Below are positions 21,374 to 48,995 of a stretch of 64,000 nt of DNA, piece after piece. The notes under the pieces were generated by a model, which worked only from the letters and a program-made list of their open reading frames with translations, was not told where the DNA came from and did no database searches. The stretch lies in IMG/VR virus record IMGVR_UViG_3300045988_166360, positions 1 through 64,000 of that record. One strand, given 5' to 3'. Source of the stretch: a virus. Every line of letters starts with the position of its first letter. Position 1 is the stretch's first letter. Both the position numbers and the translations under genes were made by a program.

Positions 21374-21398
21374 TTGTCAAGAAAAATCGACACGCGGC
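21374..21398. repeat. Copy C of the 24/25-bp element TGTCAAGAAAAATCGACACGCGGC (directly abuts the terminator T-tract)
   Basis: Exact match. Confidence 0.9.
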
Positions 21399-21494
21399 AG
21401 AAACAAAAATCCGGGAGAGATTCCCGTAATGGCAAACCTCTCCCGGACAGAGTGACGAATAGTGAATAGTGAAGCGAATAGAAAGGAGGTGCTC

Positions 21495-21671
21495 ATGCAA
21501 AGAATCTTAACCAGAGCGGTTTCTGAATCCACGTCGCGTAGTGGCTTCAACAGGGGTTTTGCACAGGCAACGGCACCACCTTATCAGTCATTGAGTTTGT
21601 TGTCAAGGATATTGATTCCCGACCTGAGTTCTATAAAGAATCCCTTTTCCCGCAATGTTACCCTACCGTAA
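21495..21671 (+). CDS. Small ORF (58 aa) preceded by the only perfect Shine-Dalgarno sequence in the window (AAGGAGGTG at 21485-21493, 5-nt spacer)
   Basis: SD and ATG read directly; product is Ser-rich low complexity; could instead be an RNA element. Confidence 0.3.
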   Translation: MQRILTRAVSESTSRSGFNRGFAQATAPPYQSLSLLSRILIPDLSSIKNPFSRNVTLP

Positions 21672-21967
21672 CCGCGTTAATTGGGAAAAACGGGTTCGTG
21701 GTTCTGGGAGAAAAAACCACGCCGTTTTAATTAGGAGTAACTCTGTGAAAATAAAATTTAGGAATTTACAATGTTACCCAACCTTTCCACGCCTTTCCTA
21801 TTTCGTCTCCTTAGTTTGTCCGTCTCCCATCTTCAAAGCGGTTTTAGATAGGGGTAACATTGCAAGAACAGGAACAAATGGAAACATACACAATACAGAA
21901 ATCATCACATAAAGGAGAAACCCAAACAGAAAGTTGACAAGAGAAGGCAAGGAGGAACCCAAAAAAC

Positions 21968-21996
21968 TTGACTCAGAAAAAAGGTCATGATAACAT
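21968..21996 (+). promoter_or_regulatory. Sigma70-like promoter TTGACT-N17-TAACAT
   Basis: Read directly; about 110 nt upstream of the terminator at 22104. Confidence 0.4.
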
Positions 21997-22002
21997 CACT
22001 CA

Positions 22003-22146
22003 GGTTCTGTTCCTTAAAAGAGTATCAGACGAAAAAGGTTAAAATGTGTTCTGAGTCTTGTCAGGACAGGCCCATAATCGCGTTCATGGTTTCTGATTAG
22101 AGTCTGAGGGAGTCTATCCGAAAGGGTGAGGCTCCCTCAGTTTTTG
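22003..22146 (+). ncRNA. Candidate small RNA 2 (about 140 nt) ending at the strong intrinsic terminator
   Basis: Promoter plus terminator spacing; no plausible ORF. Confidence 0.35.
22104..22146 (+). terminator. Strong intrinsic terminator: perfect 9-bp stem CTGAGGGAG/CTCCCTCAG followed by TTTTT
   Basis: Read directly. Confidence 0.75.
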
Positions 22147-22339
22147 TAGTTAAAGAGGAAGCACATACACCAAACTCAAGCCCTAGCCCGAGAAGGCCCT
22201 TCCCTCATTGAAGCTAAACCAGTTATGCAATTTGTAGTTGAAAAAATAGTTTTGAAATAGTAGGCAAAAATTACGTCTAAACTACGCGTAAGTGACTGAT
22301 TATTAAATGCGGGCCTTTATTTGTAGTAAATAGTAGTAG

Positions 22340-22440
22340 AGAAAAAAATTGTATATATATATAATTTATAATATATAAAAAAAAAAAAAATAAAAAAAAT
22401 ATATTTACTGTATTACTATTTACTATTTAAAAAAAAAAGA
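22340..22440. repeat. AT-only low-complexity tract ((TA)n, A13, A8, A10) - candidate DNA-unwinding element or bend
   Basis: Read directly. Confidence 0.8.
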
Positions 22441-22736
22441 CAGTTAACCTGTTGAAAATCAACCTGTTATGAATAGTTTTACCAAAAACTATTTTTGAAC
22501 CCCCGGAGTCCAAGGAACCCCCGGAATCCACTCTCCGACATCATGTAACATGTTCGAGATTAGTGGCTTACAAAAATAGTTGTGACCTCCTTTCTGCTTC
22601 AACTACAAAACGTAATTTCTTCTATTTCAATGACTTCTCATCCACACACAGCTCTCATCTACCCGGGTGTAGTCCAGCAAAGAGCTGTCCTCACCCTCTG
22701 AATGTCAGTTTCAGATACAAACCTGACACTTTTCGC

Positions 22737-22765
22737 TTGACTTCCTCCACTTCGTCTGCTAAGGT
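22737..22765 (+). promoter_or_regulatory. Rightward promoter TTGACT-N17-TAAGGT; ATG of the first plus-strand gene lies 9 nt after the -10 (near-leaderless)
   Basis: Read directly. Confidence 0.5.
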
Positions 22766-22773
22766 CTCCTTCC

Positions 22774-23457
22774 ATGACCGAAACATCTAATCTGGACCTG
22801 AGCCACTACCGACAATACCTGCATATAGACCCCCAATACCTTTGGGACGAAAAAGAGCAATGCTTTCAGACCCGCAGTATGAGAGCCCAGGAATCCACGG
22901 ATTCCGTTGTGGCCTGCATTCTGAAAGTCTTTTGTGAATCCCCTCTCTATGTATCTCTCGAAAGACTGCATCGGCTCTTCTGTCTGATAAAAGGAAGAGA
23001 AGCGGACCCCACGGAATCCGCGGCCCTCAAGGAGCTTTTTCTTATTGCTTTTTATCCTGTAAGTGCTGAGCTTCGTCTCCCGACTTATTGCAGTTTTCAA
23101 TACGTGTGGAGCAAGGGCGGGTATGCAATGGCACATTATAGCGAACATCTCCGTTGGGAATTTAATAATGAATATGGCATCTACACCGACAAAGTTCTTC
23201 CTGTCAATAAGGTTCCTTTGTGCAATCTACTGGACATCAAACAGAAACGGTGCTATCCCATGCTTCTGGCCATCATCCATGAGCTGAACGGCAAATCCCT
23301 TGCCATACCCGAACTGCTCAGGAATCCTTATTTGTCGAAGTTCAGCAGGAATACCGTACTGAAACATGCCGAAGATGTATCAGCCCGGTATGGGCTTAAA
23401 ACATCGTCAGGCCGCCCTGCGGTTTTGAATTCCGACTGCAAAATTTTCTATTACTGA
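22774..23457 (+). CDS. Hypothetical protein (227 aa), first gene of the rightward arm
   Basis: ORF; start of co-oriented replication operon. Confidence 0.6.
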   Translation: MTETSNLDLSHYRQYLHIDPQYLWDEKEQCFQTRSMRAQESTDSVVACILKVFCESPLYVSLERLHRLFCLIKGREADPTESAALKELFLIAFYPVSAELRLPTYCSFQYVWSKGGYAMAHYSEHLRWEFNNEYGIYTDKVLPVNKVPLCNLLDIKQKRCYPMLLAIIHELNGKSLAIPELLRNPYLSKFSRNTVLKHAEDVSARYGLKTSSGRPAVLNSDCKIFYY

Positions 23458-23463
23458 TAAACC

Positions 23464-26328
23464 ATGACGACACAAAACAACAATACGCCGGAGGACGATT
23501 TGGAACTTACATTCACGTCACTCCGTCTTAGCCAGTTGCAGTTCAAAACAAAAGGCACGAAACTCGCCACAGCGGGAAGTTGCAACCATTCAATATCCAT
23601 TCCATTGAGGGACGTGCTTTGTCTCTTTAAAGGGGAGAAGATTACCAACCCGGAACTCATCCGGTTCTCCTATCAGGTGAAAATGTTCCAGGCAATGCAG
23701 AATCTGGTAGATGAAGAATCTCTTTGTCTCCCGCCCCTGTATACCCGGATATTAGCGCAATGGAAGAAGCTGGGCCTCACGCCGGGGGAACTAAAACCCT
23801 CGCTCCCTGCTGTTGTGCCCTCTGTTCAGTTCCTGGGCAAACCCGGTTTCTATGACTTTTCCGCAGGTTCCTGTTACTACACTAACCGCAGGCTTGTCTC
23901 CGTTGACGGAACTTCCTGGCGGCATACAGGTGTCTTCGGCATTGACGTGGACCTTAAGGAAAACCCGGAACATACTGCGGAGTCATTACTGGATGTGGCT
24001 CGCGCCAAACTCCCGGGCCTTGACGGCTTTCTGTTTGCCTATGTAAGTCCGAACCGGGGGCTTAAGATTTTCTTCCAGGTCTCTCATCAGAATCTGCAAC
24101 AGCTGAATCAGATGCCTCAGCTGGAAGGTGAAGAAGGAGAAGAGCTGGATGTAAAGCGTTTGGCCAATGAGCGTGCTTTCCTTCATAATGTCGTCTACTA
24201 CAAATTGGCTGATTATGTAGCTAAGGAAACGGGGTTTGTTCTGGACATGGCCTGCAAGGACCCGGCACGGATGCAGTTTCTCTATCTGGGAACCTTTATC
24301 CCCGGAACCCAAGGAACCCCCGGATTCCATGTAAGCAACATTGCCGAAGTAAAGGAAGCATACCTGAGAGATGCGAAGAATCGTCCAGTTAATTCGGAAC
24401 TCCCCAGCGTAGCTCCCGGTTCTCCTAAACCCAAAATTCTGGTGGATTTCATTCGTTGGCTTAAAGTCAATGAGTACCATGATACGGCCCAGGGCCTTGA
24501 GCAAATGGACTATGTTAAGGGTGATGGGTGCCTCTACGGCGAATGCCCTCAATGTCGTGGCGGGAGGTCTGAAGTCAGCACAAATCTTGACCTTAGATTT
24601 TATCCTCACCCACAGTATGCAAATCGTTCCTACTTCTATTGCTTCCATGCCAGTTGCCATGGTGCTAATCCCGATGTTGTGTCTGTCCAATGGCTCTTCA
24701 ATCAGTACCTTGCGGATATTGAGGCTGAAGTGGAAAAGAATCTGAATGTAGAAGTCTGGTGTCAGGACCCTTTGCTGATGAAATGTTTCATGCAGGGGTT
24801 GAGCCCTGTCAACTCCAACGCCTCAATACCTGATGTCAGCTCTGCGAAACTGCGTCGGCTGGATTACCCTTATGTTAAACAGTCCAAGACAGGGAAGCTG
24901 ATACCTCTTCTGACCGACAGGAATATTGGTCATCTTCTGCACTATGGACTTAATATCAGGGTGTTCCGTCGCATGAACACCCAAGAGCTTCTCCTTTTGG
25001 ATTTCAAGAACTGCAGGTGGTACGAAACCAACCCGGCTATTCTGTCCCAGATTTCCGGGTTCTGGCAGGAGGTGGTGCCGGGACAGGCTATTCCGGCGCA
25101 ACGCCTGATGGATGCGTTGCGTAATCTGGCGCAGAGCAACTACTATCACCCATTGGCAACATTCGCCAGTTCGCGCCCCTGGGATGCTCAGGACCGTCTT
25201 CGCAATTTCCTTGACTTCTTTGTCATGGACCAGACTGTGGAAATGCCCGAAGGCTGGACTCCTGACTCCTATAGGGATGCAGTCCTTACCACCTGGCTCA
25301 TCTATCTCTGGAAACGTGTCGCCATGCGTCTCGACCTAAACCCCACAGGCACCGTGAATCAAGGGTTCCCCCAGAACTATGTACCTGTGTTTTCCGGGAA
25401 GCAGGGTGTAGGTAAGACCAAAGCTACCGAATGGCTCTTCAATGGGTTGTCCATTGATAAAGCTCAGTCCATTGAAGGTTCAAACAGCGCAGACTCTACG
25501 GTTCAGATGTCCCGGCACTCTGTTATCGTACTCGACGAAATTGATGAGGAAGTATCTAATAAAGCCAAGCAGAGCAAGCTGAAACGGATTCTCACCGGAG
25601 AATCGGACAACTGCCGTATTGCTTATGGGTCTGCACCGTCAACCTATCACTATTGCGCCAGTGTCATAGGGTCCACCAACCAAAGCCAGTTCCTGCGGGA
25701 CAACTCCGGCTCCCGTCGTTATTATCCGCTTATTCTTGGTGAACGTCCGAAACCAAAAGAACCTCTGCCCGAAGGTGTAGATGTTAACTGGGATGCCGTT
25801 AAGAAGCTGTTCGAAATGGATAACCAGCAACTCTGGGCCCAGATTAAGTACATGGTGGATTCCGGGGAAGCTGATAAGTACAGCTGGTCGAAACTGGTTA
25901 AGGTTGGTGAATACGTAGCTTCGAATTACGCCAGTTGCCAGGGGGACGATACGGACCTGGTGAAATATCTGGTGCCCGTGGCTCTTAAGGATACGGATGT
26001 GTCGGGGGGCCGTTTGTCCAAAAAGATTCCCGGAAATTTTACAACCATGCGAAATGTCCTTGAATACGTGCGAGTTACCTGGGGTAACGGGTCCCGGCAG
26101 GAAGGCTGGGATGATAAGAATTTTGAGCGCGACCTTGCTCAAGCGTATGGGCGGGATTCCCTGATGAAGCATAGTGTCCGGCGTGAGTGTGACCCAGGTC
26201 CGGTTCAACGTTATTTCTTCCTGCCTGTTGACCTGTGGATGAAGGAAGCCAGCAGGGAAACAAAGGAGCGAATCTATGCACAGTACCCCCATATTGAGAA
26301 ATTGTCACAAACCTCGCTCGAAAGTTAA
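23464..26328 (+). CDS. Primase-helicase fusion: N-terminal archaeo-eukaryotic-type primase/polymerase domain (GIDVDL motif), Cys/His zinc-binding segment (CPQCRGG...CFHASCHG), C-terminal SF3/D5-like P-loop NTPase (GKQGVGKT Walker A; VIVLDEID Walker B)
   Basis: Motifs read in translation; 954 aa. Confidence 0.8.
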   Translation: MTTQNNNTPEDDLELTFTSLRLSQLQFKTKGTKLATAGSCNHSISIPLRDVLCLFKGEKITNPELIRFSYQVKMFQAMQNLVDEESLCLPPLYTRILAQWKKLGLTPGELKPSLPAVVPSVQFLGKPGFYDFSAGSCYYTNRRLVSVDGTSWRHTGVFGIDVDLKENPEHTAESLLDVARAKLPGLDGFLFAYVSPNRGLKIFFQVSHQNLQQLNQMPQLEGEEGEELDVKRLANERAFLHNVVYYKLADYVAKETGFVLDMACKDPARMQFLYLGTFIPGTQGTPGFHVSNIAEVKEAYLRDAKNRPVNSELPSVAPGSPKPKILVDFIRWLKVNEYHDTAQGLEQMDYVKGDGCLYGECPQCRGGRSEVSTNLDLRFYPHPQYANRSYFYCFHASCHGANPDVVSVQWLFNQYLADIEAEVEKNLNVEVWCQDPLLMKCFMQGLSPVNSNASIPDVSSAKLRRLDYPYVKQSKTGKLIPLLTDRNIGHLLHYGLNIRVFRRMNTQELLLLDFKNCRWYETNPAILSQISGFWQEVVPGQAIPAQRLMDALRNLAQSNYYHPLATFASSRPWDAQDRLRNFLDFFVMDQTVEMPEGWTPDSYRDAVLTTWLIYLWKRVAMRLDLNPTGTVNQGFPQNYVPVFSGKQGVGKTKATEWLFNGLSIDKAQSIEGSNSADSTVQMSRHSVIVLDEIDEEVSNKAKQSKLKRILTGESDNCRIAYGSAPSTYHYCASVIGSTNQSQFLRDNSGSRRYYPLILGERPKPKEPLPEGVDVNWDAVKKLFEMDNQQLWAQIKYMVDSGEADKYSWSKLVKVGEYVASNYASCQGDDTDLVKYLVPVALKDTDVSGGRLSKKIPGNFTTMRNVLEYVRVTWGNGSRQEGWDDKNFERDLAQAYGRDSLMKHSVRRECDPGPVQRYFFLPVDLWMKEASRETKERIYAQYPHIEKLSQTSLES

Positions 26329-26362
26329 GATTTTTTCTTGACAAAAATTATAAGAAGGTCAC

Positions 26363-26398
26363 AATGGGCCCGTCCTGCGGGTACGAGGCGGGCCCATT
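26363..26398 (+). terminator. GC-rich hairpin (AATGGGCCCG...CGGGCCCATT) after the primase gene; no U-tract, so weak terminator or processing site
   Basis: Inverted repeat read directly. Confidence 0.35.
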
Positions 26399-26451
26399 CA
26401 GCTTCCTCCTTACCCGCTGTTGAATACTAAAACGCCAACCAGCAATAAGAC

Positions 26452-26916
26452 ATGAATAGTGTAACCGAACCGAATGAACATGACATGACCCTGTACTCCG
26501 AAGATGGAGTTCCGGTCATTCGCATTCCCCGCCTCTGCCCCTACTGCCACCAAAGCCATGTGCAGTTTGAGACAGAAGTGTACTCATCCCAGACCGTGAT
26601 ATATCTGACCTGCCCTGTCTGTGGAATTTCGACTGCCCCTTATAAGCCGGGCCCGGAGGCTTCCGTAGTTACTGCCCAGTATTTTGTCATGAAGCAGTGG
26701 CTTCGGCAGATTGCCATGCTTCCGGCATTCATGCTGTTGCGCCCCGGGGACGACTTGCTTCTCAAGGACTCTGCTCACGTAACCGCAGTAACCACGCCGC
26801 TGGAATCTGACCATAATTTTCTGGTGATGGACAAGGAGGGCCGGGTCTTTATGATAGCTCCCTCTGACATTGACTCCGCGCTTAACGACCGCATCAAAAG
26901 AATCCTTAAACACTGA
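26452..26916 (+). CDS. Hypothetical protein with zinc ribbon (CPYCHQSH...CPVCG) (154 aa)
   Basis: ORF, motif. Confidence 0.55.
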   Translation: MNSVTEPNEHDMTLYSEDGVPVIRIPRLCPYCHQSHVQFETEVYSSQTVIYLTCPVCGISTAPYKPGPEASVVTAQYFVMKQWLRQIAMLPAFMLLRPGDDLLLKDSAHVTAVTTPLESDHNFLVMDKEGRVFMIAPSDIDSALNDRIKRILKH

Positions 26917-26920
26917 AACC

Positions 26921-27307
26921 ATGAACGACTTGATTGTTGCGCCCACAACCATTGCAGATTATATTGACCGGACTTTCAAACAGATGGGGCTGGTGGAATC
27001 TTCTTCCGACCTTCTCCGACACCTGCAATGGGAGATTGAAGAGTATAAGGACGCGGAAGGTTCTGACAGAGCCGCCGAGGCTTTTGATGTAGCCGTGCTT
27101 GCCGTGCGTCTCCTTCATGCCGTGCTGAATGAAGCGGAGGATTACAGTGCCGCCAATTACAGAGCGTTTGAGAAAGAGAATGAGATACGGAAGCGGATGC
27201 GTTATGCCCTCAAGTTTTTTAAGGAAAGGAGCGGTGAGAACCTCCCCGGGGCTACTCCCTACGAGTGCTATGCCGACGCGAAGAAACACCTTAACCAGAT
27301 GGACTGA
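26921..27307 (+). CDS. Hypothetical protein (128 aa; ORF opens at 26870 but first non-overlapping ATG is 26921)
   Basis: ORF tightly coupled to the polymerase gene. Confidence 0.5.
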   Translation: MNDLIVAPTTIADYIDRTFKQMGLVESSSDLLRHLQWEIEEYKDAEGSDRAAEAFDVAVLAVRLLHAVLNEAEDYSAANYRAFEKENEIRKRMRYALKFFKERSGENLPGATPYECYADAKKHLNQMD

Positions 27308-31794: not shown

Positions 31795-31908
31795 AAAATT
31801 GTTGACATTAGCGGAGATTCTGCTAAGGTTCCCCGCGTCGAGAGGTTAAGGGGGCGGTTCACTCGCTAAAGAAATTCCCCCGCATAGAATATAAGAATAC
31901 TTGAATAT

Positions 31909-32670: not shown

Positions 32671-32802
32671 CCGATTTTCCCATCGACTTCGCTATTGTAT
32701 AATTGTTTTTGCTATTGGTTCTTGTACCCCCGCCCCGTTGGGAAACGCGGCGGGGGTTTTCTTTGCGCTTGACTCAGACATGTTTCTCCGGTATATTCCC
32801 GA

Positions 32803-33318
32803 ATGCAACTGGTAGCATGTGACCCCGGTGTCCACGGAGCCCTCGCTCTCGCGGATACCCGGCAAAAAAAAATATATGTGCAAAATATGCCGGAAGATAC
32901 TCGTGAACTGGAAGGGCTCCTGAACAAGCTACCCAGTCAAGGCGACCGCAGGCTTGTGATTGAGAAAATGAGCTATGCCATGAGTGGAGGCGGCAAGGTG
33001 AGCAATCCCCGAAGTTCCGGGCTCCTGGGTTATGCTACTGGGCGCGTTGTCGGATATGCCCTTGCCAGTGGTTACGAATTGACGGAAGTCCCCCCTGTCA
33101 AGTGGATGAGGGCTGTTGGAGCTTATGACAGCGGCCTTACCGCAAGGGACAGGACCCGATGGAAGAATAATCTGAAACAGATAGCTATTGAGAATTTCCC
33201 CGGAGTTAAGGTGACGCTACAGAATGCGGATGCCCTGCTCATCCTCCTGTGGGCTTTCCGTGAATTCAGCGGAGACCACAGTCTTACCATGGGCTCCTGG
33301 GAGATAGCCCGAATTTGA
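32803..33318 (+). CDS. RuvC-like Holliday junction resolvase
   Basis: N-terminal LVACDPGVHGALALAD and C-terminal DALLILLWA acidic motifs match the RuvC fold family. Confidence 0.65.
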   Translation: MQLVACDPGVHGALALADTRQKKIYVQNMPEDTRELEGLLNKLPSQGDRRLVIEKMSYAMSGGGKVSNPRSSGLLGYATGRVVGYALASGYELTEVPPVKWMRAVGAYDSGLTARDRTRWKNNLKQIAIENFPGVKVTLQNADALLILLWAFREFSGDHSLTMGSWEIARI

Positions 33319-33321
33319 AAC

Positions 33322-35157: not shown

Positions 35158-35822
35158 AGAGCGCGTCACAAAACACTATCGCACCCGTCACTGCGGACTG
35201 CAATTGGCAAAACACGTTGTACCGCAAGGTGTTGGACATGTATAAAGCCGGAGCCCCGATATCTGTTATTTCGGAAATAACAGGATTGCCGGAGGATAAG
35301 ATTAACAAGCTGGTGGACCAGGTGCAACTTTCCCGGGAAGAATTAACCATCCGAAACCAGCTTCTCAACAGCTATACTCAAAACACTCAAGCCCGCATCC
35401 TGAAACGCCAGGAAGCTCGAACCAATATTGAGCTCAATATTGTAGAGAACATGAGTGAGCAGTATAAAGACCTGATGAACAGCGGGTTTAAGAAGGTGGC
35501 CAGCTTTATGGCAGACGCGGATATTTCGTCCCTTAAAGAAGTCCCTATGTTCTTGTCCATCATGGAACGGAGCCACGACCTGTGGGAACGGTTTAACGAA
35601 GCTATTGCCAAGCGTGACATGGATATGTTGGCTACGGTAATTAAACAGTTTGAGCTTGAGCAGACGGAGACGATTACCCAAATGGGGTTGCAGGGAGGCC
35701 CTATTGTTCTCAATAAAGACGGAACCCGGCCAGAGCTTAAGGAGGACAGTGCCAGCCGCACCATTACGCTCAAACTTAAAAAGAAGGGTGTAAAACCGGA
35801 AGAGGACCCGAATAATCGTTGA
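35148..35822 (+). CDS. Hypothetical protein with N-terminal helix-turn-helix (ISVISEITGLPEDKINKLV); possible small terminase or DNA-binding protein
   Basis: ORF overlapping terL stop; HTH-like segment. Confidence 0.45.
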   Translation: MDLKSASQNTIAPVTADCNWQNTLYRKVLDMYKAGAPISVISEITGLPEDKINKLVDQVQLSREELTIRNQLLNSYTQNTQARILKRQEARTNIELNIVENMSEQYKDLMNSGFKKVASFMADADISSLKEVPMFLSIMERSHDLWERFNEAIAKRDMDMLATVIKQFELEQTETITQMGLQGGPIVLNKDGTRPELKEDSASRTITLKLKKKGVKPEEDPNNR

Positions 35823-35846
35823 CATTTTTGATAAGGTTGTTATAGT
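35819..35846 (+). promoter_or_regulatory. Sigma70-like promoter TTGACA-N16-TATAGT; the ATG at 35854 is 7 nt after the -10, which predicts a leaderless mRNA
   Basis: Read directly. Confidence 0.6.
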
Positions 35847-35853
35847 CAGCGGC

Positions 35854-36684
35854 ATGGCTCGAGACGAAAATTTGCAAGAACTCTTCCGTCGATGGACTCC
35901 GGTTACGCTTATCAATCTGCCAGAGGAAATTCAAACTCCTGAAATTTTCCCCGATTACATGGGCCCTGAGAAGGACCCAGCCCCTGTCGGACATGTTAAG
36001 GGCCTTTTGACGGTTTTAGGTTATTCGCATGACCTTAAGAGACCTTACGTAGTTAAATGTGTTTGCGGAAACATTCTTAAGGCTTCGGTTCAGCAGGTCT
36101 CGCTTCAATATAAAATGGCCCAATATCTGTCACAGGACACTCTTTGTTGCGGCTGTTTCTGCCAGATTACGCGCACGGCTTATTTGATTCGCCTTCGGGT
36201 TGAAGCTTTACGTTCCTGGTGCCAGCAGATGGGGTCCTGGCTGGACGACCTCAACACTCTTCGGAGGTATGCCCGGAAATATAAAGTGGAAATCAGTAAG
36301 AATGTTGAACATAGAAAGCCTCTTCGTCAGATAGTGCGGATGGAATATGAGGATGACCCTTTGACTTTTGACCGCAGGGTTGAGCCTAAAATGATTGATG
36401 ACCAGGATATGTTCATGAAACTTATCGCCCCCAGCCCGGAGTATGAAAAATTTCTGAGGGAAATGGCTGATAAATTAGCGCATGAATATGAACCCTGGGC
36501 CGCCATTCCCATGGCAAGCCTTAGTGCGTATGCCAGTTACAAACGGGAATTGCCGGAATTTGATGCGGCCACCTTCATTAACTTTGTCAATTATCTCATT
36601 GACATGGAACAGAATTCAAGTAAAGTTGCTTCATCCGATGGCGAAGAAAACCAAAAAGACAGAAAATCGAAAAAAGGGAGCTAA
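35854..36684 (+). CDS. Hypothetical Cys-rich protein (276 aa)
   Basis: ORF; VKCVCGN...CCGCFCQ motif. Confidence 0.6.
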   Translation: MARDENLQELFRRWTPVTLINLPEEIQTPEIFPDYMGPEKDPAPVGHVKGLLTVLGYSHDLKRPYVVKCVCGNILKASVQQVSLQYKMAQYLSQDTLCCGCFCQITRTAYLIRLRVEALRSWCQQMGSWLDDLNTLRRYARKYKVEISKNVEHRKPLRQIVRMEYEDDPLTFDRRVEPKMIDDQDMFMKLIAPSPEYEKFLREMADKLAHEYEPWAAIPMASLSAYASYKRELPEFDAATFINFVNYLIDMEQNSSKVASSDGEENQKDRKSKKGS

Positions 36685-37192: not shown

Positions 37193-37194
37193 CT

Positions 37195-38109: not shown

Positions 38110-38114
38110 TCGTT

Positions 38115-40394: not shown

Positions 40395-40707
40395 TATCTG
40401 GCCCACCTATACTGAGGAAGCGTTCAGGACCAACCCGAAAGCCCAGGGTTCCCTGTTCGAATTGTTGCAGGACCCTGTGATGCAGGAGGCCCTTCTTATT
40501 ATCCAGTCTAAATTGAATGCGTCCCTTCCATCCACTGTAGAAGCGGCGGCTCTTGCCGGAGCCTATGCCGCGGGAGCTCAGGCCGTAATCTCCGGCCTCC
40601 ATAGACTGGCGCAACCCATGGAATCCACGGAAGCCCCGGTAGCCATGGAACCCGTGGCTACCGTGGAACGGAACGCCTGGATTAACTCACTTAAACCTAT
40701 TATCTAA
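40387..40707 (+). CDS. Hypothetical small protein (106 aa)
   Basis: ORF trimmed to ATG overlapping portal stop. Confidence 0.5.
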   Translation: MSNIWPTYTEEAFRTNPKAQGSLFELLQDPVMQEALLIIQSKLNASLPSTVEAAALAGAYAAGAQAVISGLHRLAQPMESTEAPVAMEPVATVERNAWINSLKPII

Positions 40708-40715
40708 ACTAATTT

Positions 40716-41924: not shown

Positions 41925-42138
41925 GCCTGGAATAAATATTTCTTGACATCTACCTGGAAATAATACAAAAAAGGTGCATCCAAAGCGGTGCATCTTTTTT
42001 GCTTTACCCGCGAGCAAACAAATATTTTCATTTCGCAGGCGTATCAATCCTGGTCCTGTCCCTGCCGTGACCGCCAAAGAACCCATCCAATTTATCCAAA
42101 CAAAGGAGCCGTTGCCGTAATCAACTAAAAAAAAACAA

Positions 42139-43395
42139 ATGGCTAATTCTCCTAACGACATTCAGGCCCAGGACCTCAAGTTGGTCACGATGACCAACCT
42201 TCTTAACGCCACTATGTACAGCACGTTTGCTCGTACTTCCCCCTGGAACTCCCAGATGATTATGTCTGGCGAGTGGACGGACGGCGTTGGTGACTCCGGG
42301 CGTATCGCAACCTTCGGTGCTACGGACCCCCGTCCCGAATGGATGAACATCAGTCTTAACTCTACTTCTGACCAGATTCCGATTACGGTCAATGACACGG
42401 GTGCTACTATCTACTCCTACAGCCGCTTCATTACGCGCCTGGCTTCCCAGAAACTGGACGTGCTTCGTATGCGCCAGTCCTGGCAGGCTCAGCAACAGGC
42501 CGAAAACGTGGTTAAGCAGTTGGTCCGAGCTGTGGGCAACACCTGGTCCCGTTTCTACCGTCAGAGCTACATCAACATTGCGTCCTACAAGCTTATCCCC
42601 ACGAAGGCGGGCATTGTCGGTCTCGATGTGGTAAGCAACGACATCAACTCCATGCCGGAAGTTAAGCCGGAAGCCGCGCTTAACGACAACCTGATGAACC
42701 AGGTATGGCAGGTCCTCATCAATGAAGGAGCAGGCGAATCCGCGGCTTTCATGGACCAGGGTTCCCCGGTGTTCCTGGCTTACACCTCCAAGGATACGGT
42801 TGACTTTATCCTGCGTGAAAACCAGATTATCCACAAGGACTGGAACTTTGCCGAAGCGGCTGAGGGTAAGGAAGCTACTCTGCTTCGCCAGCTTGGCGTG
42901 AAGTGGACGTACAAGGGCTTCACCTATATCGTGGACAACATGAACCCCCGCTATACTTTCGATGACACCAAGCCGACCGGGCAGAAGTGGGTGGAAGTTC
43001 CGCAGTACATCAAGTCCGAAACGGCTGTGGGTTCCCGTTATGTCCCGAACCCGGCTTACCTGAACGCGCCGTATGAGGACACCATTGTGTTCGTCAAGGA
43101 CGTGTACAAGTCTCTGGTTCCCCGTCCGGTTTCCGCTTATGGCCAGGCCAAGTGGGACCCCGTAACCTACGCGGGCGAACTGACCTGGGTAAACAACAAG
43201 GACAACAACGGCAACTATATGGGCACTCAGGGCCTGTTTATTGCCACGCTGTCTGCGGCCCCGATGCCTGTTTTCCCGCGTCACGGCGTTGTCATTCGTC
43301 ACATCCGCACGACTTCAGGTCGTGACCTGGTAGATGCGAATGGCCAGCCCATTGGTTCCCTGGTCAGCACTCCTTCCGCAGTTGCTGGTCTGTAA
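42139..43395 (+). CDS. Putative major capsid protein (418 aa)
   Basis: Position after scaffold; long A-rich leader; strong intrinsic terminator immediately downstream. Confidence 0.5.
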   Translation: MANSPNDIQAQDLKLVTMTNLLNATMYSTFARTSPWNSQMIMSGEWTDGVGDSGRIATFGATDPRPEWMNISLNSTSDQIPITVNDTGATIYSYSRFITRLASQKLDVLRMRQSWQAQQQAENVVKQLVRAVGNTWSRFYRQSYINIASYKLIPTKAGIVGLDVVSNDINSMPEVKPEAALNDNLMNQVWQVLINEGAGESAAFMDQGSPVFLAYTSKDTVDFILRENQIIHKDWNFAEAAEGKEATLLRQLGVKWTYKGFTYIVDNMNPRYTFDDTKPTGQKWVEVPQYIKSETAVGSRYVPNPAYLNAPYEDTIVFVKDVYKSLVPRPVSAYGQAKWDPVTYAGELTWVNNKDNNGNYMGTQGLFIATLSAAPMPVFPRHGVVIRHIRTTSGRDLVDANGQPIGSLVSTPSAVAGL

Positions 43396-43418
43396 TCTAA
43401 ACCCTTAACTCAGTAACC

Positions 43419-43457
43419 GGGGCGGGTGGGATATTCCTGCCCGCCCCATATTTTTTA
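43419..43457 (+). terminator. Intrinsic terminator (GGGGCGGG/CCCGCCCC stem followed by ATATTTTTT)
   Basis: Read directly. Confidence 0.7.
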
Positions 43458-43463
43458 AGTCAA

Positions 43464-43742
43464 ATGAAAATTGCTTACGACCCTGAAAAGTTCGGTGAAC
43501 TTAAACCCGGAGACGATGTGCAAGTCATGGGTGTTGGTGTAGTTTCCGACGACGGTAAATCCATTGAAATCGTTTCTATCGAAGACCAGGAACTGGATGA
43601 GAGTGACGAGGACGAGAAGGATGACGAGGAATCCGAGGAAGAAACCGAATCCCCTAAAAAAGTAACCGAAGAAGAAACGGATGAAGAACTGGCAGAAGGG
43701 GCAGACCTTGATGCCATTATTGCGTCCGGTTTTGGCAGATAA
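43464..43742 (+). CDS. Small highly acidic protein (92 aa, Asp/Glu-rich)
   Basis: ORF. Confidence 0.5.
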   Translation: MKIAYDPEKFGELKPGDDVQVMGVGVVSDDGKSIEIVSIEDQELDESDEDEKDDEESEEETESPKKVTEEETDEELAEGADLDAIIASGFGR

Positions 43743-43760
43743 ACTTTAAAGTTTTAGTAT

Positions 43761-44291
43761 ATGGCTTCCATCACTTTCCCCACGGCATCCCCGGTAACTT
43801 TGAATTCCGGGGAAGAATATACCACGGAAATCGCGGATAAGAGCGACTACATTCTTATGTTCACTTTGGACCGGGGTACTGGTTCCCTCCTGATTCAGAA
43901 CTCATCTACACTGGTAGATGGAACGGACGTGTTTAACCGCCCCCTGCTTCTGAAACAGTTGGATTCAGCCAGTGCCCCGAACATTAAAGCTACGGCTACT
44001 TTGGCCGAAGCGGTTATCACTCTTTCCGTAGTTAAAGCACCTGCTTCTGAATACGGAACTGTTTCATGCACTCCTGGCGTTAAACATCAAGTGAGCCTTT
44101 CCGTAGATTCAGCCGAACCGGAAACTTCTTCCGCGGTTATTTACTTCGGAGACTCTCTGGATGCCGCGGTTTCCTCTGTTTACGTGCATGACGGAGACCT
44201 CATTATTCCTCCTGAAGACAATGCAGTCGTTCCTCTCAACAGGGGAATTTTGCTTACCCCCCTTGTCGAACAAACTAAAGCTCAAGCTTAA
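43761..44291 (+). CDS. Hypothetical structural protein (176 aa)
   Basis: ORF. Confidence 0.55.
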   Translation: MASITFPTASPVTLNSGEEYTTEIADKSDYILMFTLDRGTGSLLIQNSSTLVDGTDVFNRPLLLKQLDSASAPNIKATATLAEAVITLSVVKAPASEYGTVSCTPGVKHQVSLSVDSAEPETSSAVIYFGDSLDAAVSSVYVHDGDLIIPPEDNAVVPLNRGILLTPLVEQTKAQA

Positions 44292-44310
44292 CCCTTAACA
44301 ATTTTAAATT

Positions 44311-45276
44311 ATGCCTGCAACCAATCTTCCCATTCCCGCAGAAAACGCCGCCATCAACCGCGGCGAACTGTACCAGCTTACGGGCCTCACCGCAAGCACC
44401 CGGTACCAGTTTGTAATCAGTTCTACTAAAAACCCTTCTGTCACAATCGCAAAAGAAGAAGCCCTGACCACTATCCAGGCACAGGGCAATTTTAACGGAA
44501 CCCCGTTTTATTTCACCACGGACGCTGGACAAACCTCAGCCTATTTGCTGGTGAACGCGCTGGAAGGAGCTGTTATTACGTTGAACATGAAGGCTGACCC
44601 CATCCCGTCTCCTTCTTCCGTTACGCTTCCCAATACGCTGGACCCCGACAAGTGGTACGTGGTGACGGGTTTGACCAACGGTGCCCTCTATGAACTGGCC
44701 GTAAGTTCCGATGCCCCGGTAACTGTGTTTTCCAAAACTGGAACCGCCCTGGCGACTGCGGTGGAAAATCCCCCGCTTATGACCCAGGCGGGCTCTATCC
44801 AGTTCCAGACTACGGGAACTTCCGCGTGGCTGTATGTGGACGGGGCTTTCCCGGCCAACGTCAGTCTGAAACCCTTCACTGGCGTGGTGGGTTCCGTGCC
44901 TCCCCAGGTTACTCAACTTAATTCGACCACCCTTACTGTAGCTCTTCAGGGCCCCGCTCCTGCCGGGTATTATTTCCTGGATGTTGTTACGGAAGCCGGG
45001 TCTAATGCCAATTCCGATGGAACCCTTACCACGAATGTAACTCCGACTTACCAGGCCTGGACAGGGTTGAAATCCGGGGCTATGCTGGAACCTTTGACTC
45101 CCGCCAACAGCAAAGTAACTGCGACGGATATTCAAGGACGCATGATGTTCAGTTCGGGAGCCGTTCTGGGTAGTGGCCAGAGCACGACGCTTGTCACTCT
45201 GACCGTACCAACCGGAGGCACTCCGCAGGAATTTAGCGGGACTGCCGTGGTCACTTTTGCCGGGAACATTTCTTAG
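44311..45276 (+). CDS. Hypothetical structural protein (321 aa), Thr/Ser-rich beta-type composition
   Basis: ORF. Confidence 0.55.
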   Translation: MPATNLPIPAENAAINRGELYQLTGLTASTRYQFVISSTKNPSVTIAKEEALTTIQAQGNFNGTPFYFTTDAGQTSAYLLVNALEGAVITLNMKADPIPSPSSVTLPNTLDPDKWYVVTGLTNGALYELAVSSDAPVTVFSKTGTALATAVENPPLMTQAGSIQFQTTGTSAWLYVDGAFPANVSLKPFTGVVGSVPPQVTQLNSTTLTVALQGPAPAGYYFLDVVTEAGSNANSDGTLTTNVTPTYQAWTGLKSGAMLEPLTPANSKVTATDIQGRMMFSSGAVLGSGQSTTLVTLTVPTGGTPQEFSGTAVVTFAGNIS

Positions 45277-45294
45277 CACCCAATCCATTTAACC

Positions 45295-45334
45295 TTGACA
45301 CACATGGACCCATTGACCTATAGTCAATGGGTCC
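45295..45334 (+). promoter_or_regulatory. Promoter TTGACA-N18-TATAGT overlapped by a perfect 12-bp inverted repeat GGACCCATTGAC-N5-GTCAATGGGTCC (operator, or a terminator hairpin for the upstream gene)
   Basis: Read directly. Confidence 0.55.
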
Positions 45335-45353
45335 GAACTTTTGAATTCTTTTT

Positions 45354-47132
45354 ATGGATATTAACGACTATATAAACGGGACTCCTATTGAGCCGGGGGT
45401 TACGTACAAACTGGGGAATGCGGATGCCAATACCGCGTGGACCCTGGTTTCCGACCGCCCGTGCCTCTTTAAGCTGTCAGCCACGGCACCCACGGATTCC
45501 GCGTGGTCCAATGTCACGGAGGAACAATATATCATTAACGGAGACGTTTCCAATCAGGTTATTGAAATCACGTCTCCCAATGGCAAGTATTTTGTCGTAG
45601 CCACCCATGACCAGGATTCCGCGGCTACCGTGGAATCCGCGTATGCTACGGTGTCTCTTAAGCCGTTGGGTTTCAATGTAGAGGACTCATATGAAACAAC
45701 TCCGTTGAATGGAGACGGCCCGGTAACTGAAGGCTTTTATAAGATTTCCAACCTTGAATCCGGCAAGCTTTATTCCTTCAACGTAACCCCCGACGCGGGC
45801 GGCCTTAAGGCTACCAATCCCTCGCCGGAGTATGCTTTCTCCCTGTTCAGCGTAGATGGAAGCAACAATCCCAAGGCATTACTGGCCGCAGGGATTACGG
45901 AATGCCAGCTGGTATTTGTAGCCACGGAATCCACGGCAGTGCTGAACCTGTCCTCCACGCTTCCCGACAGCGAGTTTTTTGTCTGCATCCGAAATTTTAG
46001 TTTAGGCTCTGGTGGTTCCGGGTTCGACCCTTCTTCTGACCAGAGTATCACCGGAGCCTGGACCTTCTCCAATATTACCGTACCTACTCCCACGGCCTCT
46101 GGACAAGCGGCTAACAAGGGTTACGTGGATTCGAACTTCGTTTCGAAGTCTAATAATGAAACTATTGCAGGTGTTAAGACTTTTTCTTCGCCGCCTGTAG
46201 TTCCCAGTCCGACTGCGAATAATCAGGCCGCGCCGAAAAGCTATGTCGATTCCGCAGTAGATTCTGTTCACGAGTTTGACCCCGCAGAAGCCCAAAACAT
46301 TACCGGGTCTTGGAGCTTTTCGGATGGATTGACCAGAACCACAAAAGCATCCCCTGCAAATACAGATATCATGAATAAGGAAATGAGTGATGCTGTATAT
46401 GTACCTAAAGCGGGGGATTCTACTGTAGAGGGCACTAAAACCTTTTCCGGTTCAATTACCTTAGCTAATGAGGCTCCACTTGTTTTAGGGACAGGAACGG
46501 AGGCCGTAAAAATTTCGGGGTCAGGAACCGGGTCTGCTGTTATTGAAGGAGGCAACGATGCAACTTTGGATGTAGCTGTTCCCGTATCATTACAGGAAAC
46601 CGTAGCGATAACCAAGTTTACTTCAGATATATCTGAAATACCTTCTGCTCAGTCTCCGGTTACTCTGTGGGAACTTCAGAGCTTGAACGACGGTTGTTTG
46701 ATAACTCAAACAATCCCTAGCGGGAATCTCACTCTTACGGCTAAGGCATTTACTTCTGGTATAACTATTCAAAATAATGGATGGGCTATTACCAATAGTG
46801 CAGGACAATGCAACGGAGGTTACATTTTTCGAGGGGGAGTTACTTTTAGTCAAACTATTACAGTAGCTCAAACTGCTACCTTTAATGGTTCGGTAACGTT
46901 AGGCAACTCAGCCAAGATTTCTGGCCCTACACTGGACGAGTCGGCTATTTCTGACACGACATATATCCCTGTAGGCAACTCTGACCAGAAATATATCAAG
47001 TATAAGGAACTGACTAAAGCAGATTACGATGCTTTAGAAACGAAAAGCAATTCAACTATTTACTTTTTAACTGACCAGACTATGTGGGCTATCGGCACCA
47101 AGGAATTGGTGACTTCCGATATGCCCGCTTGA
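45354..47132 (+). CDS. Tail fibre protein (592 aa) with phage tail-fibre repeat-like segments (KGYVDS..., KSYVDSAVDSV)
   Basis: Repeated xYVDs motifs characteristic of tail-fibre repeats; Ser/Thr/Gly-rich. Confidence 0.6.
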   Translation: MDINDYINGTPIEPGVTYKLGNADANTAWTLVSDRPCLFKLSATAPTDSAWSNVTEEQYIINGDVSNQVIEITSPNGKYFVVATHDQDSAATVESAYATVSLKPLGFNVEDSYETTPLNGDGPVTEGFYKISNLESGKLYSFNVTPDAGGLKATNPSPEYAFSLFSVDGSNNPKALLAAGITECQLVFVATESTAVLNLSSTLPDSEFFVCIRNFSLGSGGSGFDPSSDQSITGAWTFSNITVPTPTASGQAANKGYVDSNFVSKSNNETIAGVKTFSSPPVVPSPTANNQAAPKSYVDSAVDSVHEFDPAEAQNITGSWSFSDGLTRTTKASPANTDIMNKEMSDAVYVPKAGDSTVEGTKTFSGSITLANEAPLVLGTGTEAVKISGSGTGSAVIEGGNDATLDVAVPVSLQETVAITKFTSDISEIPSAQSPVTLWELQSLNDGCLITQTIPSGNLTLTAKAFTSGITIQNNGWAITNSAGQCNGGYIFRGGVTFSQTITVAQTATFNGSVTLGNSAKISGPTLDESAISDTTYIPVGNSDQKYIKYKELTKADYDALETKSNSTIYFLTDQTMWAIGTKELVTSDMPA

Positions 47133-47190
47133 TGTGGGGGGGGGAGCTATTCCCCCCCCCCCACGGAACTAATTTACTGCAACAAAAGAC

Positions 47191-47679
47191 ATGAATAACT
47201 ACACCCATTTTGCATATCTCACCAGCGCAGAAACCAAGGGTATTGTGGCCCCGGTTGTAGCGTTGCCCGCCGAAGCCCCGGAAGGGTTTTATAAGATTAA
47301 ACTTTGGTTTGGCCCTGAAACTTCTTCTAGTGCTGGTTCTCAACCCTGTGATATTTGGATTACTACTACCTCTAGTAGCGTTTCCTTGCCTGACATCTCT
47401 TCAAATACGAGCAATTTAAGTGTTTCTCTAAATAGAGCCTCCCAGCTGTTAGTGAAAGGGTTGGATGGCAATATTTATACCTGTGGTTTTACCTCAATGG
47501 AGAGGTTTACTTATCCAGCCGACTCTGAACTGATAGGGGGAGAACTGCATGTTTACCATACTGCTTCTACTCCCGGTTCGGTGAAGTTGAGCTTTAAGGC
47601 ATCCTCCGCCGAAGAAGAGCATGACGTAGTACGAGTGGCATTCTTCCAAATTAGTGGCCCTGTAAATCAATCTGAATAA
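47191..47679 (+). CDS. Hypothetical protein (162 aa)
   Basis: ORF. Confidence 0.55.
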   Translation: MNNYTHFAYLTSAETKGIVAPVVALPAEAPEGFYKIKLWFGPETSSSAGSQPCDIWITTTSSSVSLPDISSNTSNLSVSLNRASQLLVKGLDGNIYTCGFTSMERFTYPADSELIGGELHVYHTASTPGSVKLSFKASSAEEEHDVVRVAFFQISGPVNQSE

Positions 47680-47695
47680 GTTCTAAGGAGAAATC

Positions 47696-48124
47696 ATGTA
47701 TATAAAATTTATCAACCTTACGGCACAATCTACTAACGAAACAGATATTGCCACCCTACCAGCCGAAGCTCCTTCTGGATGGTATGAAGTAGAGATTCCT
47801 GGGGGAGTTGCTTCCTATGCGTACAACGTTCAAGCGCATGGTCAAGGTTCCGGTGCTTATCAAGATTCCTTTCTTTCGATTCTTTATCAAGCAAACCCCT
47901 GCCTTCTTTTGTCAGGTGCAAGTTTGAGTGTTTTGTCTTCGAACTATGACTCCGAAACCAACTCCGTTATGTGGTCTGTGCCGAACGGAACTACTTTGGT
48001 TCAAATGAGATGCTTCTTCAAGCATGTTCAAGGAACAGAAACGCCTTTGGTTTCCTTGATGGGGCTTAATGTTTTTACTTCGGGAAACTATGTGAAAACC
48101 GTTATAGTTCGTCAATTAGCTTAG
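47696..48124 (+). CDS. Hypothetical protein (142 aa)
   Basis: ORF. Confidence 0.55.
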   Translation: MYIKFINLTAQSTNETDIATLPAEAPSGWYEVEIPGGVASYAYNVQAHGQGSGAYQDSFLSILYQANPCLLLSGASLSVLSSNYDSETNSVMWSVPNGTTLVQMRCFFKHVQGTETPLVSLMGLNVFTSGNYVKTVIVRQLA

Positions 48125-48129
48125 TTTTT

Positions 48130-48486
48130 ATGAACTCTTTCATAACTATTATTTATCCAGATTTGGGTAATTTTAATCTTGCCACAATTTTTTTACTTGG
48201 AAAAGACGATTCCGGCAATGTGCTGTCTTCTTCCTGGGAGCTGTCGGACTTGTCGGAAAGTCAAAGAGAAGCTTATAACACTCTGGTGGAAGCTATCAAA
48301 TCAGAACAGGAGCTTTGGACTGTCAGCCAGGGGTGGATTTATCCCGGGTATAAAGACGGAACATTGACTGAATTGATTCTAAAATTAGAAGCCGTTTCTG
48401 ATTCAGGAAACCGTTTCCTTCTGCCCGACAGGACTACTTCGGACCCTGCCTATCTTAATTTGTACTCTTCATTTATAGCCTCATGA
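48130..48486 (+). CDS. Hypothetical protein (118 aa)
   Basis: ORF. Confidence 0.55.
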   Translation: MNSFITIIYPDLGNFNLATIFLLGKDDSGNVLSSSWELSDLSESQREAYNTLVEAIKSEQELWTVSQGWIYPGYKDGTLTELILKLEAVSDSGNRFLLPDRTTSDPAYLNLYSSFIAS

Positions 48487-48584
48487 CCTTAAAGGAATTG
48501 CTTGAACTACTTACAAACCGCCGAAAATGAAAAAAGGAAAAGGTAAAGGAAAAGGTAAAGGGTGCGGTAAATAACGCACGTCAA

Positions 48585-48614
48585 CCCCGGAGGGCATCCC
48601 CTCCGGGGTTTTTG
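48585..48614 (+). terminator. Intrinsic terminator (CCCCGGAGGG/CCCTCCGGGG followed by TTTTTG)
   Basis: Read directly. Confidence 0.7.
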
Positions 48615-48668
48615 TCATACAGAAATAATAATGTTGACAAAAAGCAATTGTCAGATAAATTGAGAGAC

Positions 48669-48995
48669 ATGGAGTACGACTCTACATCTAAAAATATTGT
48701 GGTAGTTCAAGACTTAACCAATGGTCTTGGGCATATTATTGAGAGTAATAATAACAAAGAATCCGGTACAAAGAAGCGGGCTTATGTTGAATTTCCTTCA
48801 GCCCCACTTCCAGTGCCTTTGCCCTCCATGAGTTGGAATGAAGCTGATAAGACGGAAGAAGCTTTTCGTATCACCCGACTTCATGACTCTTCATTAGCCC
48901 CAGACCAGGAACTTTCAGAGTCAGAATCACAAATTAAGGAAGAAGTGAAATGGACTACTGAATGGGCAAAGGAACAATTGAATGAACAAAATTAA
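48669..48995 (+). CDS. Hypothetical protein (108 aa from ATG 48669; preceded by TTGACA-N16-TAAATT at 48634-48661, which predicts a leaderless start)
   Basis: ORF track start at 48612 is a TTG inside the terminator T-tract and was rejected. Confidence 0.5.
   Translation: MEYDSTSKNIVVVQDLTNGLGHIIESNNNKESGTKKRAYVEFPSAPLPVPLPSMSWNEADKTEEAFRITRLHDSSLAPDQELSESESQIKEEVKWTTEWAKEQLNEQN

Follow-up and report, generated by a model that had tools for sequence, protein, structure and literature searches.

The DNA analysed here, positions 1 to 64,000 of the IMG/VR virus record IMGVR_UViG_3300045988_166360 (hereafter the window, 64 kb in full), covers most of the genome of a tailed phage and carries, in a non-coding hub between two gene arms, a single perfect Shine-Dalgarno (SD)-like motif within a genome that avoids SD sequences. 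The left arm (6601–19951, minus strand) includes the gene for ThyX (8041–8730), and the upstream regions of its genes are A-rich and without SD. The right arm (22774–63748, plus strand) comprises genes for replication, packaging, structure and lysis, also without SD, and their start regions are unstructured, A/T-rich and G-poor. Its replication products are a VapE-type primase-helicase with a BT4734-like N-terminal domain, a family A DNA polymerase, a helicase and a PD-(D/E)XK nuclease; further products are the large terminase, structural proteins, a MarR-like protein, a CMP-sugar cytidylyltransferase-like protein and a PG_binding_3 lysin. The 2.7-kb hub (20.0–22.77 kb) separates the two arms and holds the motif at 21479–21491 (plus strand), behind which lies an open reading frame (ORF) of 58 codons (21495–21671, plus strand).

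Genomes of this family measure ~70–72 kb, and dozens of relatives of 64–72 kb were found in IMG/VR, Logan and ENA. Hubs were recovered from ~20 IMG/VR and Logan relatives via an identical 27-mer, and a search with the conserved hub motif added 44 metagenome contigs, many of which are labelled 'human gut metagenome'; the family is therefore a prevalent, uncultured one from the human gut. The window's own clade consists of the window, L051, L056 and the strain variants L077 and L078; the hubs of distant relatives (the L026 group), whose contigs stop at the hub, lay outside the comparison. A 9-kb megablast search against GenBank phages gave no match, nor did tblastn searches of the terminase and the putative capsid against cultured phages. 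The matches of PolA and primase reached ~25% identity only, were spread over many unrelated phages and are uninformative for the host.

Depletion of Shine-Dalgarno sequences at gene starts

For 65 confident starts, the best duplex between positions −20 to −1 and the 16S 3′ end was calculated, with random sites and internal ATGs serving as controls. The mean energy was −1.9 kcal/mol at the starts, as compared with −3.7 kcal/mol at random sites and −4.0 kcal/mol upstream of internal ATGs, showing that pairing was weaker at the starts than in both controls (Mann–Whitney, p = 2e-9 and 4e-12, respectively). Energies of −6 kcal/mol or lower were reached by 8% of the starts and by 19–21% of the controls; SD-like sequence is therefore depleted at starts, beyond mere absence. 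The depletion was repeated in six relatives, down to 56% terminase identity. The frequency of A upstream of the starts was 0.31–0.55 (background, 0.26) and that of G was 0.03–0.20 (background, 0.24), in agreement with the A-rich upstream regions reported in a preliminary description of this DNA. That description had also stated that no well-supported gene has a recognisable SD, which holds for the 65 starts as a group and is slightly overstated for two genes. One is gene 47696–48124, preceded by the best SD-like site found ahead of a real gene (AAGGAG-5nt-ATG, 47685–47698, plus strand; −9.1 kcal/mol), and the other is gene 51699, with a plausible GGAGG at 3 nucleotides (nt) from its ATG.

An alternative, host-specific SD, which had been named as the finding that would speak against SD independence, was ruled out by de novo k-mer enrichment upstream of the starts. 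Only A/T-rich words (TAA, TTAA and AATA) were enriched, and no alternative purine motif was found. The segment from −20 to +20 was very weakly folded, with a mean of −2.0 kcal/mol at the starts versus −6.0 kcal/mol at random sites (p = 2e-20). SD-independent initiation via locally unstructured start regions is known (Scharff et al. 2011, PMC3121790), and the phage resembles that route in having no anti-SD complementarity, A/U-rich and G-poor upstream sequence and very weak folding around the start. These results show that the start regions carry the signature of SD-independent initiation at unstructured start regions. Among the gene junctions on the same strand, 23 of 62 overlap or are no more than 10 nt apart, and translational coupling is likely at such overlapping or abutting genes.

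Sigma70-type promoters and predicted leaderless starts

Composite promoter sequences of the form TTGACN-15..18-TAnnnT occurred 24 times in the window as against 7.9 ± 2.8 in shuffled sequences (z = 5.9), a threefold enrichment, and most of them are intergenic and oriented with the genes. The enrichment was also observed in six relatives (z = 3.8–7.4), and the canonical −35/−10 promoter type suggested earlier is thus borne out. Five of the composites end 5–8 nt before the ATG of a long ORF, all on the plus strand. TTGACG-18-TACACT-5-ATG at 5821–5858 is a candidate leaderless promoter of ORF 5856–6467, as judged from the sequence of the window alone. TTGACT-17-TAAGGT-8-ATG at 22737–22776 precedes the first right-arm gene (22774–23457), for which a leaderless transcript or a leader of 1–2 nt is predicted. 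Leaderless-type promoters are also predicted for gene 32803–33318 (TTGACT-17-TATATT-5-ATG, 32769–32805), gene 35854–36684 (TTGACA-16-TATAGT-7-ATG, 35819–35856) and gene 48669–48995 (TTGACA-16-TAAATT-7-ATG, 48634–48671, directly after an intrinsic terminator). The preliminary description had listed three promoters with the −10 box close to the ATG, all of which are present with the sequences given, and had missed those of 5856 and 32803.

Comparison with the relatives revealed that the boxes and their distance from the ATG are kept at four of the five sites. At gene 35854, 13 distinct relatives (54–67% amino acid identity) retain TTGACA, TATAGT or TATATT, and a gap of 6–7 nt to the ATG, around spacers of 16–17 nt with unrelated sequence. 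At gene 32803, TTGAC(T/C)-17-TATA(T/G)T-5-ATG with diverged spacers is found in L004, L006, L017, L021 and L025 (72–87% amino acid identity), and the homologue of gene 48669 in L073 (~67% amino acid identity) has TTGACA-16-TATGTT-7-ATG with a different spacer. The counterpart of gene 22774 in L051 is preceded by TTGACA-17-CATGGT-8-ATG; in L041, where the right arm opens with a non-homologous gene, that gene starts with a TTGACA-17-TATCAT-6-ATG of its own. Conservation of boxes and distance over diverged spacers is the footprint expected of a functional leaderless promoter. Moreover, the start codon is ATG at all five sites and at every homologous start in the relatives, and in four of the five cases this ATG is the first possible start of its ORF. 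Collectively, the comparison strongly supports the leaderless mRNAs that the preliminary description had predicted, and the promoter geometry predicts them at no fewer than five operon heads.

It might be argued that the five adjacencies are not leaderless at all, the genes being read from upstream operon promoters and the boxes being weak internal promoters or non-functional. Indeed, genes 32803 and 35854 lie inside a co-oriented gene array, so that read-through transcripts with long leaders must also exist. We regard this explanation as most improbable, because both boxes and the exact ATG distance are conserved over diverged spacers, terminator-like hairpins with T-runs lie directly upstream of the 32769 and 48634 sites, and five adjacencies were observed where the estimated chance expectation is ~0.05 with random placement and ~0.6 with 16 promoters placed over the 100 nt upstream of genes.

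Leaderless mRNAs have precedents in lambda cI transcribed from PRM (PMC10491246) and are abundant in mycobacteria (PMC4633059) and Caulobacter (PMC4117421). The phage is like these systems in that the −10 box lies a few nt before the ATG, the start is always AUG and no SD is needed. It differs from them in that the arrangement occurs at at least five operon heads and is conserved across the family; furthermore, the leadered genes of lambda and mycobacteria use SD, whereas those of the phage are without it. A leadered transcript is predicted for the left arm, whose promoter, TTGACA-16-(TG)TATGAT at 20003–20030 (minus strand), matches 11 of 12 consensus positions and has an extended −10. This promoter, reading from 20030 to 20003, would give a leader of ~45 nt without SD before the ATG at 19951; in the distant relative L071, the predicted leader is 10–15 nt. 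A phage-encoded sigma factor or RNA polymerase was considered as the source of the promoters and rejected, as none turned up in Pfam and PHROG scans of ~60 ORFs.

Two duplicated regulatory cassettes were also observed in the left arm, at 18339–18650 and 19208–19522 (244 nt at 98% and 82 nt at 90% identity). Both contain TTGACG-16-TAAAGT together with a terminator-like hairpin, and they place one shared A-rich 5′ untranslated region ahead of different genes (17781–18332 and 18659–19207). A 97-nt repeat pair (15742–15838 and 17642–17738) precedes two other genes.

Promoter type and the host

Lineages in which SD sites are scarce while the CCUCC of the anti-SD is kept include Bacteroidota, Mollicutes and Akkermansia (PMC10783764). 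We searched for the Bacteroidetes promoter composite, TTTG-N17-21-TAnnTTTG, which was found once in the window (1.4 expected) and not at all in each of six relatives. In the control phages, by contrast, it was clearly enriched, with 6 copies versus 0.9 expected in Bacteroides phage B40-8 (FJ008913; z = 5.3) and 8 versus 0.2 in Parabacteroides phage PM116P4 (OP172826; z = 18.5), and the sigma70 composite was enriched in neither of them. Thus, B40-8 and PM116P4, although likewise gut phages with SD-less genes, possess many TTTG-N17-21-TAnnTTTG sequences and no excess of TTGACA-TAnnnT, whereas the present family shows the reverse; their terminase and capsid have no detectable sequence similarity to those of the family. 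The upstream positions rich in A also appear to differ. In the window, the peaks lie at −5, −10/−11 and −20/−21 (0.46–0.55), with 0.38 at −3, a pattern that errors in start-site assignment could blur; in B40-8, A reaches 0.61–0.67 at −3, −6 and −11 to −14. The phage therefore departs from SD-scarce Bacteroidota in its promoter code, which is the sigma70 consensus and not the Bacteroidetes −33/−7 type, and apparently from B40-8 in this pattern.

An ordinary Bacteroidales host, in which the absence of SD would be a Bacteroidota trait with nothing more to explain, would fit the human gut origin, the B40-8-like SD depletion, the BT4734-like N-terminal domain of the primase and the many weak PolA and primase matches to Bacteroides phages. 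Nevertheless, such a host seems rather unlikely to us, given that the Bacteroidetes composite is at chance level here and enriched in both Bacteroidales controls, that the conserved boxes are full TTGACA and TATAGT/TATATT without a TTTG half, that the A peaks of B40-8 are not reproduced in the window, and that no sigma factor was seen among the ~60 ORFs scanned. SD-free genes together with sigma70 promoters and no Bacteroidetes type therefore argue against Bacteroidales and make Akkermansia a candidate. The host would be a gut bacterium with SD-independent initiation and a conventional sigma70 promoter code, for which Akkermansia is plausible as the leading candidate. Predicted Akkermansia phages have a guanine-plus-cytosine (G+C) content of 49–60% (PMC13184272), as compared with 47–52% in the present family, and no paper describing the Akkermansia phage isolates listed in NCBI taxonomy was found in a literature search. 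The view taken earlier that promoter type and SD independence constrain the host proved useful, in that the Bacteroidetes promoter signature is absent from this SD-free family of the human gut.

A conserved anti-SD-complementary motif in the hub

The motif, TAGAAAGGAGGTG at 21479–21491, is a 13-nt perfect complement of the long-type 16S 3′ tail GAUCACCUCCUUUCUA, which is present in B. subtilis and not in E. coli (PMC5427494). The window contains no second match of this kind, chance alone would give ~0.01, and the duplex of the motif with the anti-SD has an energy of −16 kcal/mol. It contains AAGGAGGTG at 21483–21491, which occurs once in the 128 kb of both strands. The preliminary description had recognised this as the sole canonical SD and a perfect complement to the 16S 3′ end; its position, given as 21485–21493, was two bases off, and the complementarity extends further than described.

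The core TAGAAAGGAG was found at the syntenic position in every hub recovered, whereas the sequence around it is alignable within clades only. The motif family, TAGAA(A)GG[AC]G, is confined to the hub and lies on the same strand throughout, with one copy each in the window, L051 and L056 and three in the main clade. The pairing partner of the conserved core is the terminal CUCCUUUCUA of the 16S tail. Among the main-clade genomes, the central hub is 93–98% identical, matching the primase and polymerase genes, and the flanking hub is 34–72% identical. In the consensus fold, the motif is single-stranded beside a hairpin with two AU↔GC compensatory pairs. A promoter-like sequence, TTGACG-17-AACTAT, ends 12–14 nt upstream of the motif in the main clade. 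Judging from the hubs compared, the motif is a conserved non-coding element and not the ribosome-binding site of a conserved protein, and it probably engages the 16S 3′ tail of the 30S subunit on an RNA. Of the two options raised before, a small SD-driven gene or a motif functioning at the RNA level, the latter is thus favoured by the presence of the core in all hubs, and the former fails in that frame, length and peptide are not conserved, as detailed below.

The main alternative for the motif is a role at the DNA level, as a polypurine tract or protein site of a replication origin or control region, its SD likeness being incidental. Consistent with this, the motif sits among iteron-like repeats (a 25-nt TGTCAAG... 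repeat in three copies and tandem 9-mers), ~900 nt from an AT-only tract; of the three main-clade copies, all in the same orientation, one (TAGAAGGCGGG) interrupts the complementarity to the anti-SD; and no promoter was identified upstream of the motif in the window. We nonetheless hold it to be quite unlikely, since a 13-nt perfect match to the 16S tail is hardly expected by chance, the conserved core coincides exactly with the stretch pairing with the terminal CUCCUUUCUA, the compensatory changes in the neighbouring hairpin are of the RNA type, and the copies are strand-specific.

Engagement of the 16S tail by the hub RNA would have a parallel in STAB-SD, known from cry3A mRNA, and in the polypurine 5′ stabiliser (Agaisse & Lereclus 1996; Hue et al. 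1995; review, PMC4113751; also cited in PMC3997798). Like STAB-SD, which is of the GAAAGGAGG type and is believed to keep a 30S subunit bound to its RNA, the phage motif is a perfect SD-like sequence, complementary to the 16S 3′ end and apparently far from any used start. The known STAB-SD cases, however, involve RNase J1-dependent mRNAs of Firmicutes, in which SD is otherwise used, whereas the phage motif lies in the non-coding hub of an SD-avoiding genome; moreover, its 5′-proximal position is predicted only, and in the main clade only, and stabilisation is proposed by analogy.

Two candidate structures around the motif were rejected. A 16S-tail-like segment, GCACCACCTT at 21573–21582 (plus strand), pairs with AAGGAGGTGC at 9 of 10 positions, and this helix is present in both the minimum-free-energy and the centroid fold of 21440–21700. 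The fold of that region is no stabler than those of shuffled sequences (z = +1.0) and the partners differ between lineages, and a conserved helix sequestering the motif was thus dismissed. A hairpin of GGGGUCCG and CGGACC after the second main-clade copy was likewise discarded, as it is not kept in variants.

Two further sequences related to the 16S tail were observed. In L077, an A-to-T change at the equivalent of 21482 turns TAGAAAGGAGG into TAGTAAGGAGG, which creates the perfect SD of the E. coli type, UAAGGAGGUG; the change was observed once, and either a polymorphism or a sequencing error could explain it. The 11 nt of ACCTCCTTTCT, at 22585–22595 on the plus strand and 180 nt ahead of the first right-arm gene, repeat the 16S 3′ tail itself; this copy is not shared by L051, has a chance expectation of ~0.2 and is probably fortuitous.

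The 58-codon ORF behind the motif

The ORF at 21495–21671 is present as described earlier, with its ATG 5 nt after GGAGG, and is not conserved; it is probably no protein gene. In L051, GTG replaces ATG and a 2-nt indel leads into another frame of 33 codons, and in L056 the ORF starts with GTG-TGA. In the main clade, a GTG follows the motif at 1 nt, and a 1-nt indel polymorphism downstream excludes coding there; at the second main-clade copy, an ATG at 2 nt varies to ACG or AGG. Among 5.8 billion proteins, the 58-residue peptide matched a single entry, a strain variant at 98% identity. If the SD at 21483–21491 did drive a genuine small protein gene specific to this lineage, the geometry would be ideal (GGAGG-5nt-ATG), and the ORF is intact in the strain variants L077 and L078, where three of four substitutions fall at third codon positions, and is called as a gene on five contigs by gene callers. 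This reading is nevertheless highly unlikely, because the next relatives do not keep the frame intact, the proteins searched contain no homologue below 98% identity, the main clade keeps the motif without a usable start, and the third-position excess is not significant (p ~0.11).

Another possibility is that ribosomes are indeed loaded at the motif, onto a short ORF (for example a leader peptide, a start-stop ORF or a minigene) whose product does not matter; what would count is translation as such, which would govern how the hub RNA folds or what becomes of it, or would sequester ribosomes. Each of the three lineages in the window's clade has a start codon 4–6 nt past GGAGG (ATG in the window, GTG in L051 and L056), the GTG-TGA of L056 is a start-stop, and the length of the ORF varies (58, 33, 1 or 9 codons), as would be expected if initiation alone mattered. 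On the other hand, none of the three motif copies of the main clade is followed by a conserved start at a suitable distance, the ORF of the window is coupled neither to a downstream gene nor to an attenuator-like terminator, and this would be the sole SD-dependent initiation in an otherwise SD-avoiding genome. Such loading of ribosomes therefore appears unlikely, as does the effect on the hub RNA or the ribosome pool that it would entail.

Proposed mode of expression

We consider it reasonably probable that the best overall explanation is an SD-free phage with leaderless starts, a conserved non-coding SD-like motif and a host outside Bacteroidales. A host-type RNA polymerase would read the whole genome from sigma70-consensus promoters (TTGACA-16/17-TAnnnT) and stop at intrinsic terminators. 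Translation would proceed without SD pairing, via unstructured start regions, with coupling between overlapping or abutting genes. In at least five units, the −10 box lies 5–8 nt before the ATG, so that, to judge from this geometry and its conservation, the transcript would begin at or next to the A of the AUG, and such leaderless mRNA would be bound directly by 70S ribosomes. On the hub transcript, TAGAA(A)GGAG would bind the 16S 3′ tail (the last 10–13 nt, long-type) in the 30S subunit without productive initiation. A 30S subunit held there would resemble STAB-SD and polypurine 5′ stabilisers, shielding the RNA from 5′ exonuclease; alternatively, the motif would load ribosomes onto a meaningless mini-ORF.

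Several points weigh against this explanation. All of its expression steps are read from sequence. At the leaderless starts, the 22737 promoter has a weak −10 (TAAGGT) and an 8-nt gap, and may give a leader of 1–2 nt. As for the motif, the hairpin covariation may reflect a single event, in two of eight sequences; the predicted accessibility of the motif is moderate only (0.4–0.8), with no conserved partner; the upstream sequence in the window itself contains no convincing promoter; the start codons 4–6 nt past GGAGG in the window's clade may permit translation of a short, non-conserved ORF; and if the anti-SD of the host ribosome were occluded as in Bacteroidota, a 30S-binding role would be defeated. 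As for the host, a search of 185,579 species genomes with the 27-mer hub anchor (exact) and a terminase profile gave no match, and the G+C content of the family (47–52%) is below that of A. muciniphila.

Neither SD-free translation nor leaderless mRNA is new in itself, and the bulk of these findings is a clear new example and no new principle. What is less ordinary is that a genome avoiding SD carries an anti-SD-complementary motif, and that its promoter and translation signals occur in this combination. At the sequence level, the comparison yields evidence, backed by conservation, that leaderless operon heads recur in a prevalent uncultured family of human-gut phages. SD-free genes with sigma70 promoters set this family apart from cultured Bacteroidales phages and narrow the host to the few gut lineages with both traits. 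Akkermansia is the obvious candidate, and very few of its phages have been characterised. The conserved non-coding anti-SD complement, in turn, suggests that an RNA might engage the 3′ tail of the ribosomal RNA and give rise to no protein. In a bolder form, to which we give little credence, the phage would deliberately keep its own mRNAs SD-free, by means of leaderless starts, coupling and unstructured start regions, while one to three conserved hub RNA elements with the perfect 16S complement act as a sponge or decoy for the anti-SD of 30S subunits in the host. If true, this would tilt translation towards the SD-independent phage messages or recruit ribosomes that shield the hub RNAs. To our knowledge, no regulator of this kind, a virus-encoded RNA targeting the anti-SD, has been described.

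Other features of the hub and the genome

The hub of the window contained no tRNA or tmRNA and no Rfam match at the gathering score or at E ≤ 1; the Rfam matches in L041 were chance-level microRNAs only. The 25-nt direct repeat CTGTCAAGAAAAATCGACACGCGGC occurs three times (20804–20828, 21107–21131 and 21374–21398), at spacings of 303 and 267 nt, with a degenerate fourth copy near 21603. Its pattern TGTCAAGMAAAATCGACAYGYGGC, with internal TGTC...GACA symmetry, is conserved family-wide and in the 44 metagenome contigs, and the repeat could be an iteron or operator. The 27-mer ATTATATGTATTATGCGAAGTATGGAA at 20409–20435 is identical in 18 IMG/VR contigs whose proteins are 55–90% identical to those of the window, and is followed by a second conserved block, AAACAGGGTGCCAATAGGAAAC. 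Tandem repeats are present at 20039–20077 (18-bp unit, 2.2 copies) and 20113–20197 (9-bp unit GGGTTCCGG, 9.4 copies), and similar GGTTCCGGG runs are found in hubs of the relatives as well as at a few positions within the right arm. From 22340 to 22430 extends a pure A/T low-complexity tract (TA repeats and A23), at or near which many independent assemblies of relatives end; it is likely a DNA-unwinding element or genome terminus, and a likely cause of the fragmented contigs. A unit resembling a small RNA gene runs from TTGACT-17-TAACAT at 21968 to a terminator at 22110–22146 and is conserved in L051; the main clade has instead two tandem units of ~75 nt, each with TTGACA-16-TATAGT and a terminator (L041, 2705–2945).

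The G+C content of the window is uneven, 36–41% in the left arm (6000–18000) versus 50–54% in the replication and structural arm (24000–46000), and the most A-rich start regions are those of the left arm. Mosaicism was evident at the junction at 26326. L001, L003 and L025 are 80–98% identical to the window from 26.3 kb onward and carry another early module (first gene and primase) upstream of it; the primase of the L026 group is only ~20–25% identical. No relatives of gene 48982 were found in IMG/VR. The sequence being permuted, both ends of a giant ORF of ~3,200–3,300 amino acids lie in the window (63.8 kb to the end, and 71–5806). Pfam and PHROG scans of the C-terminal part of its product (1,911 residues) gave no match, and counterparts of the ORF are present in relatives, from 17365 in L073 and from 19654 in L074.

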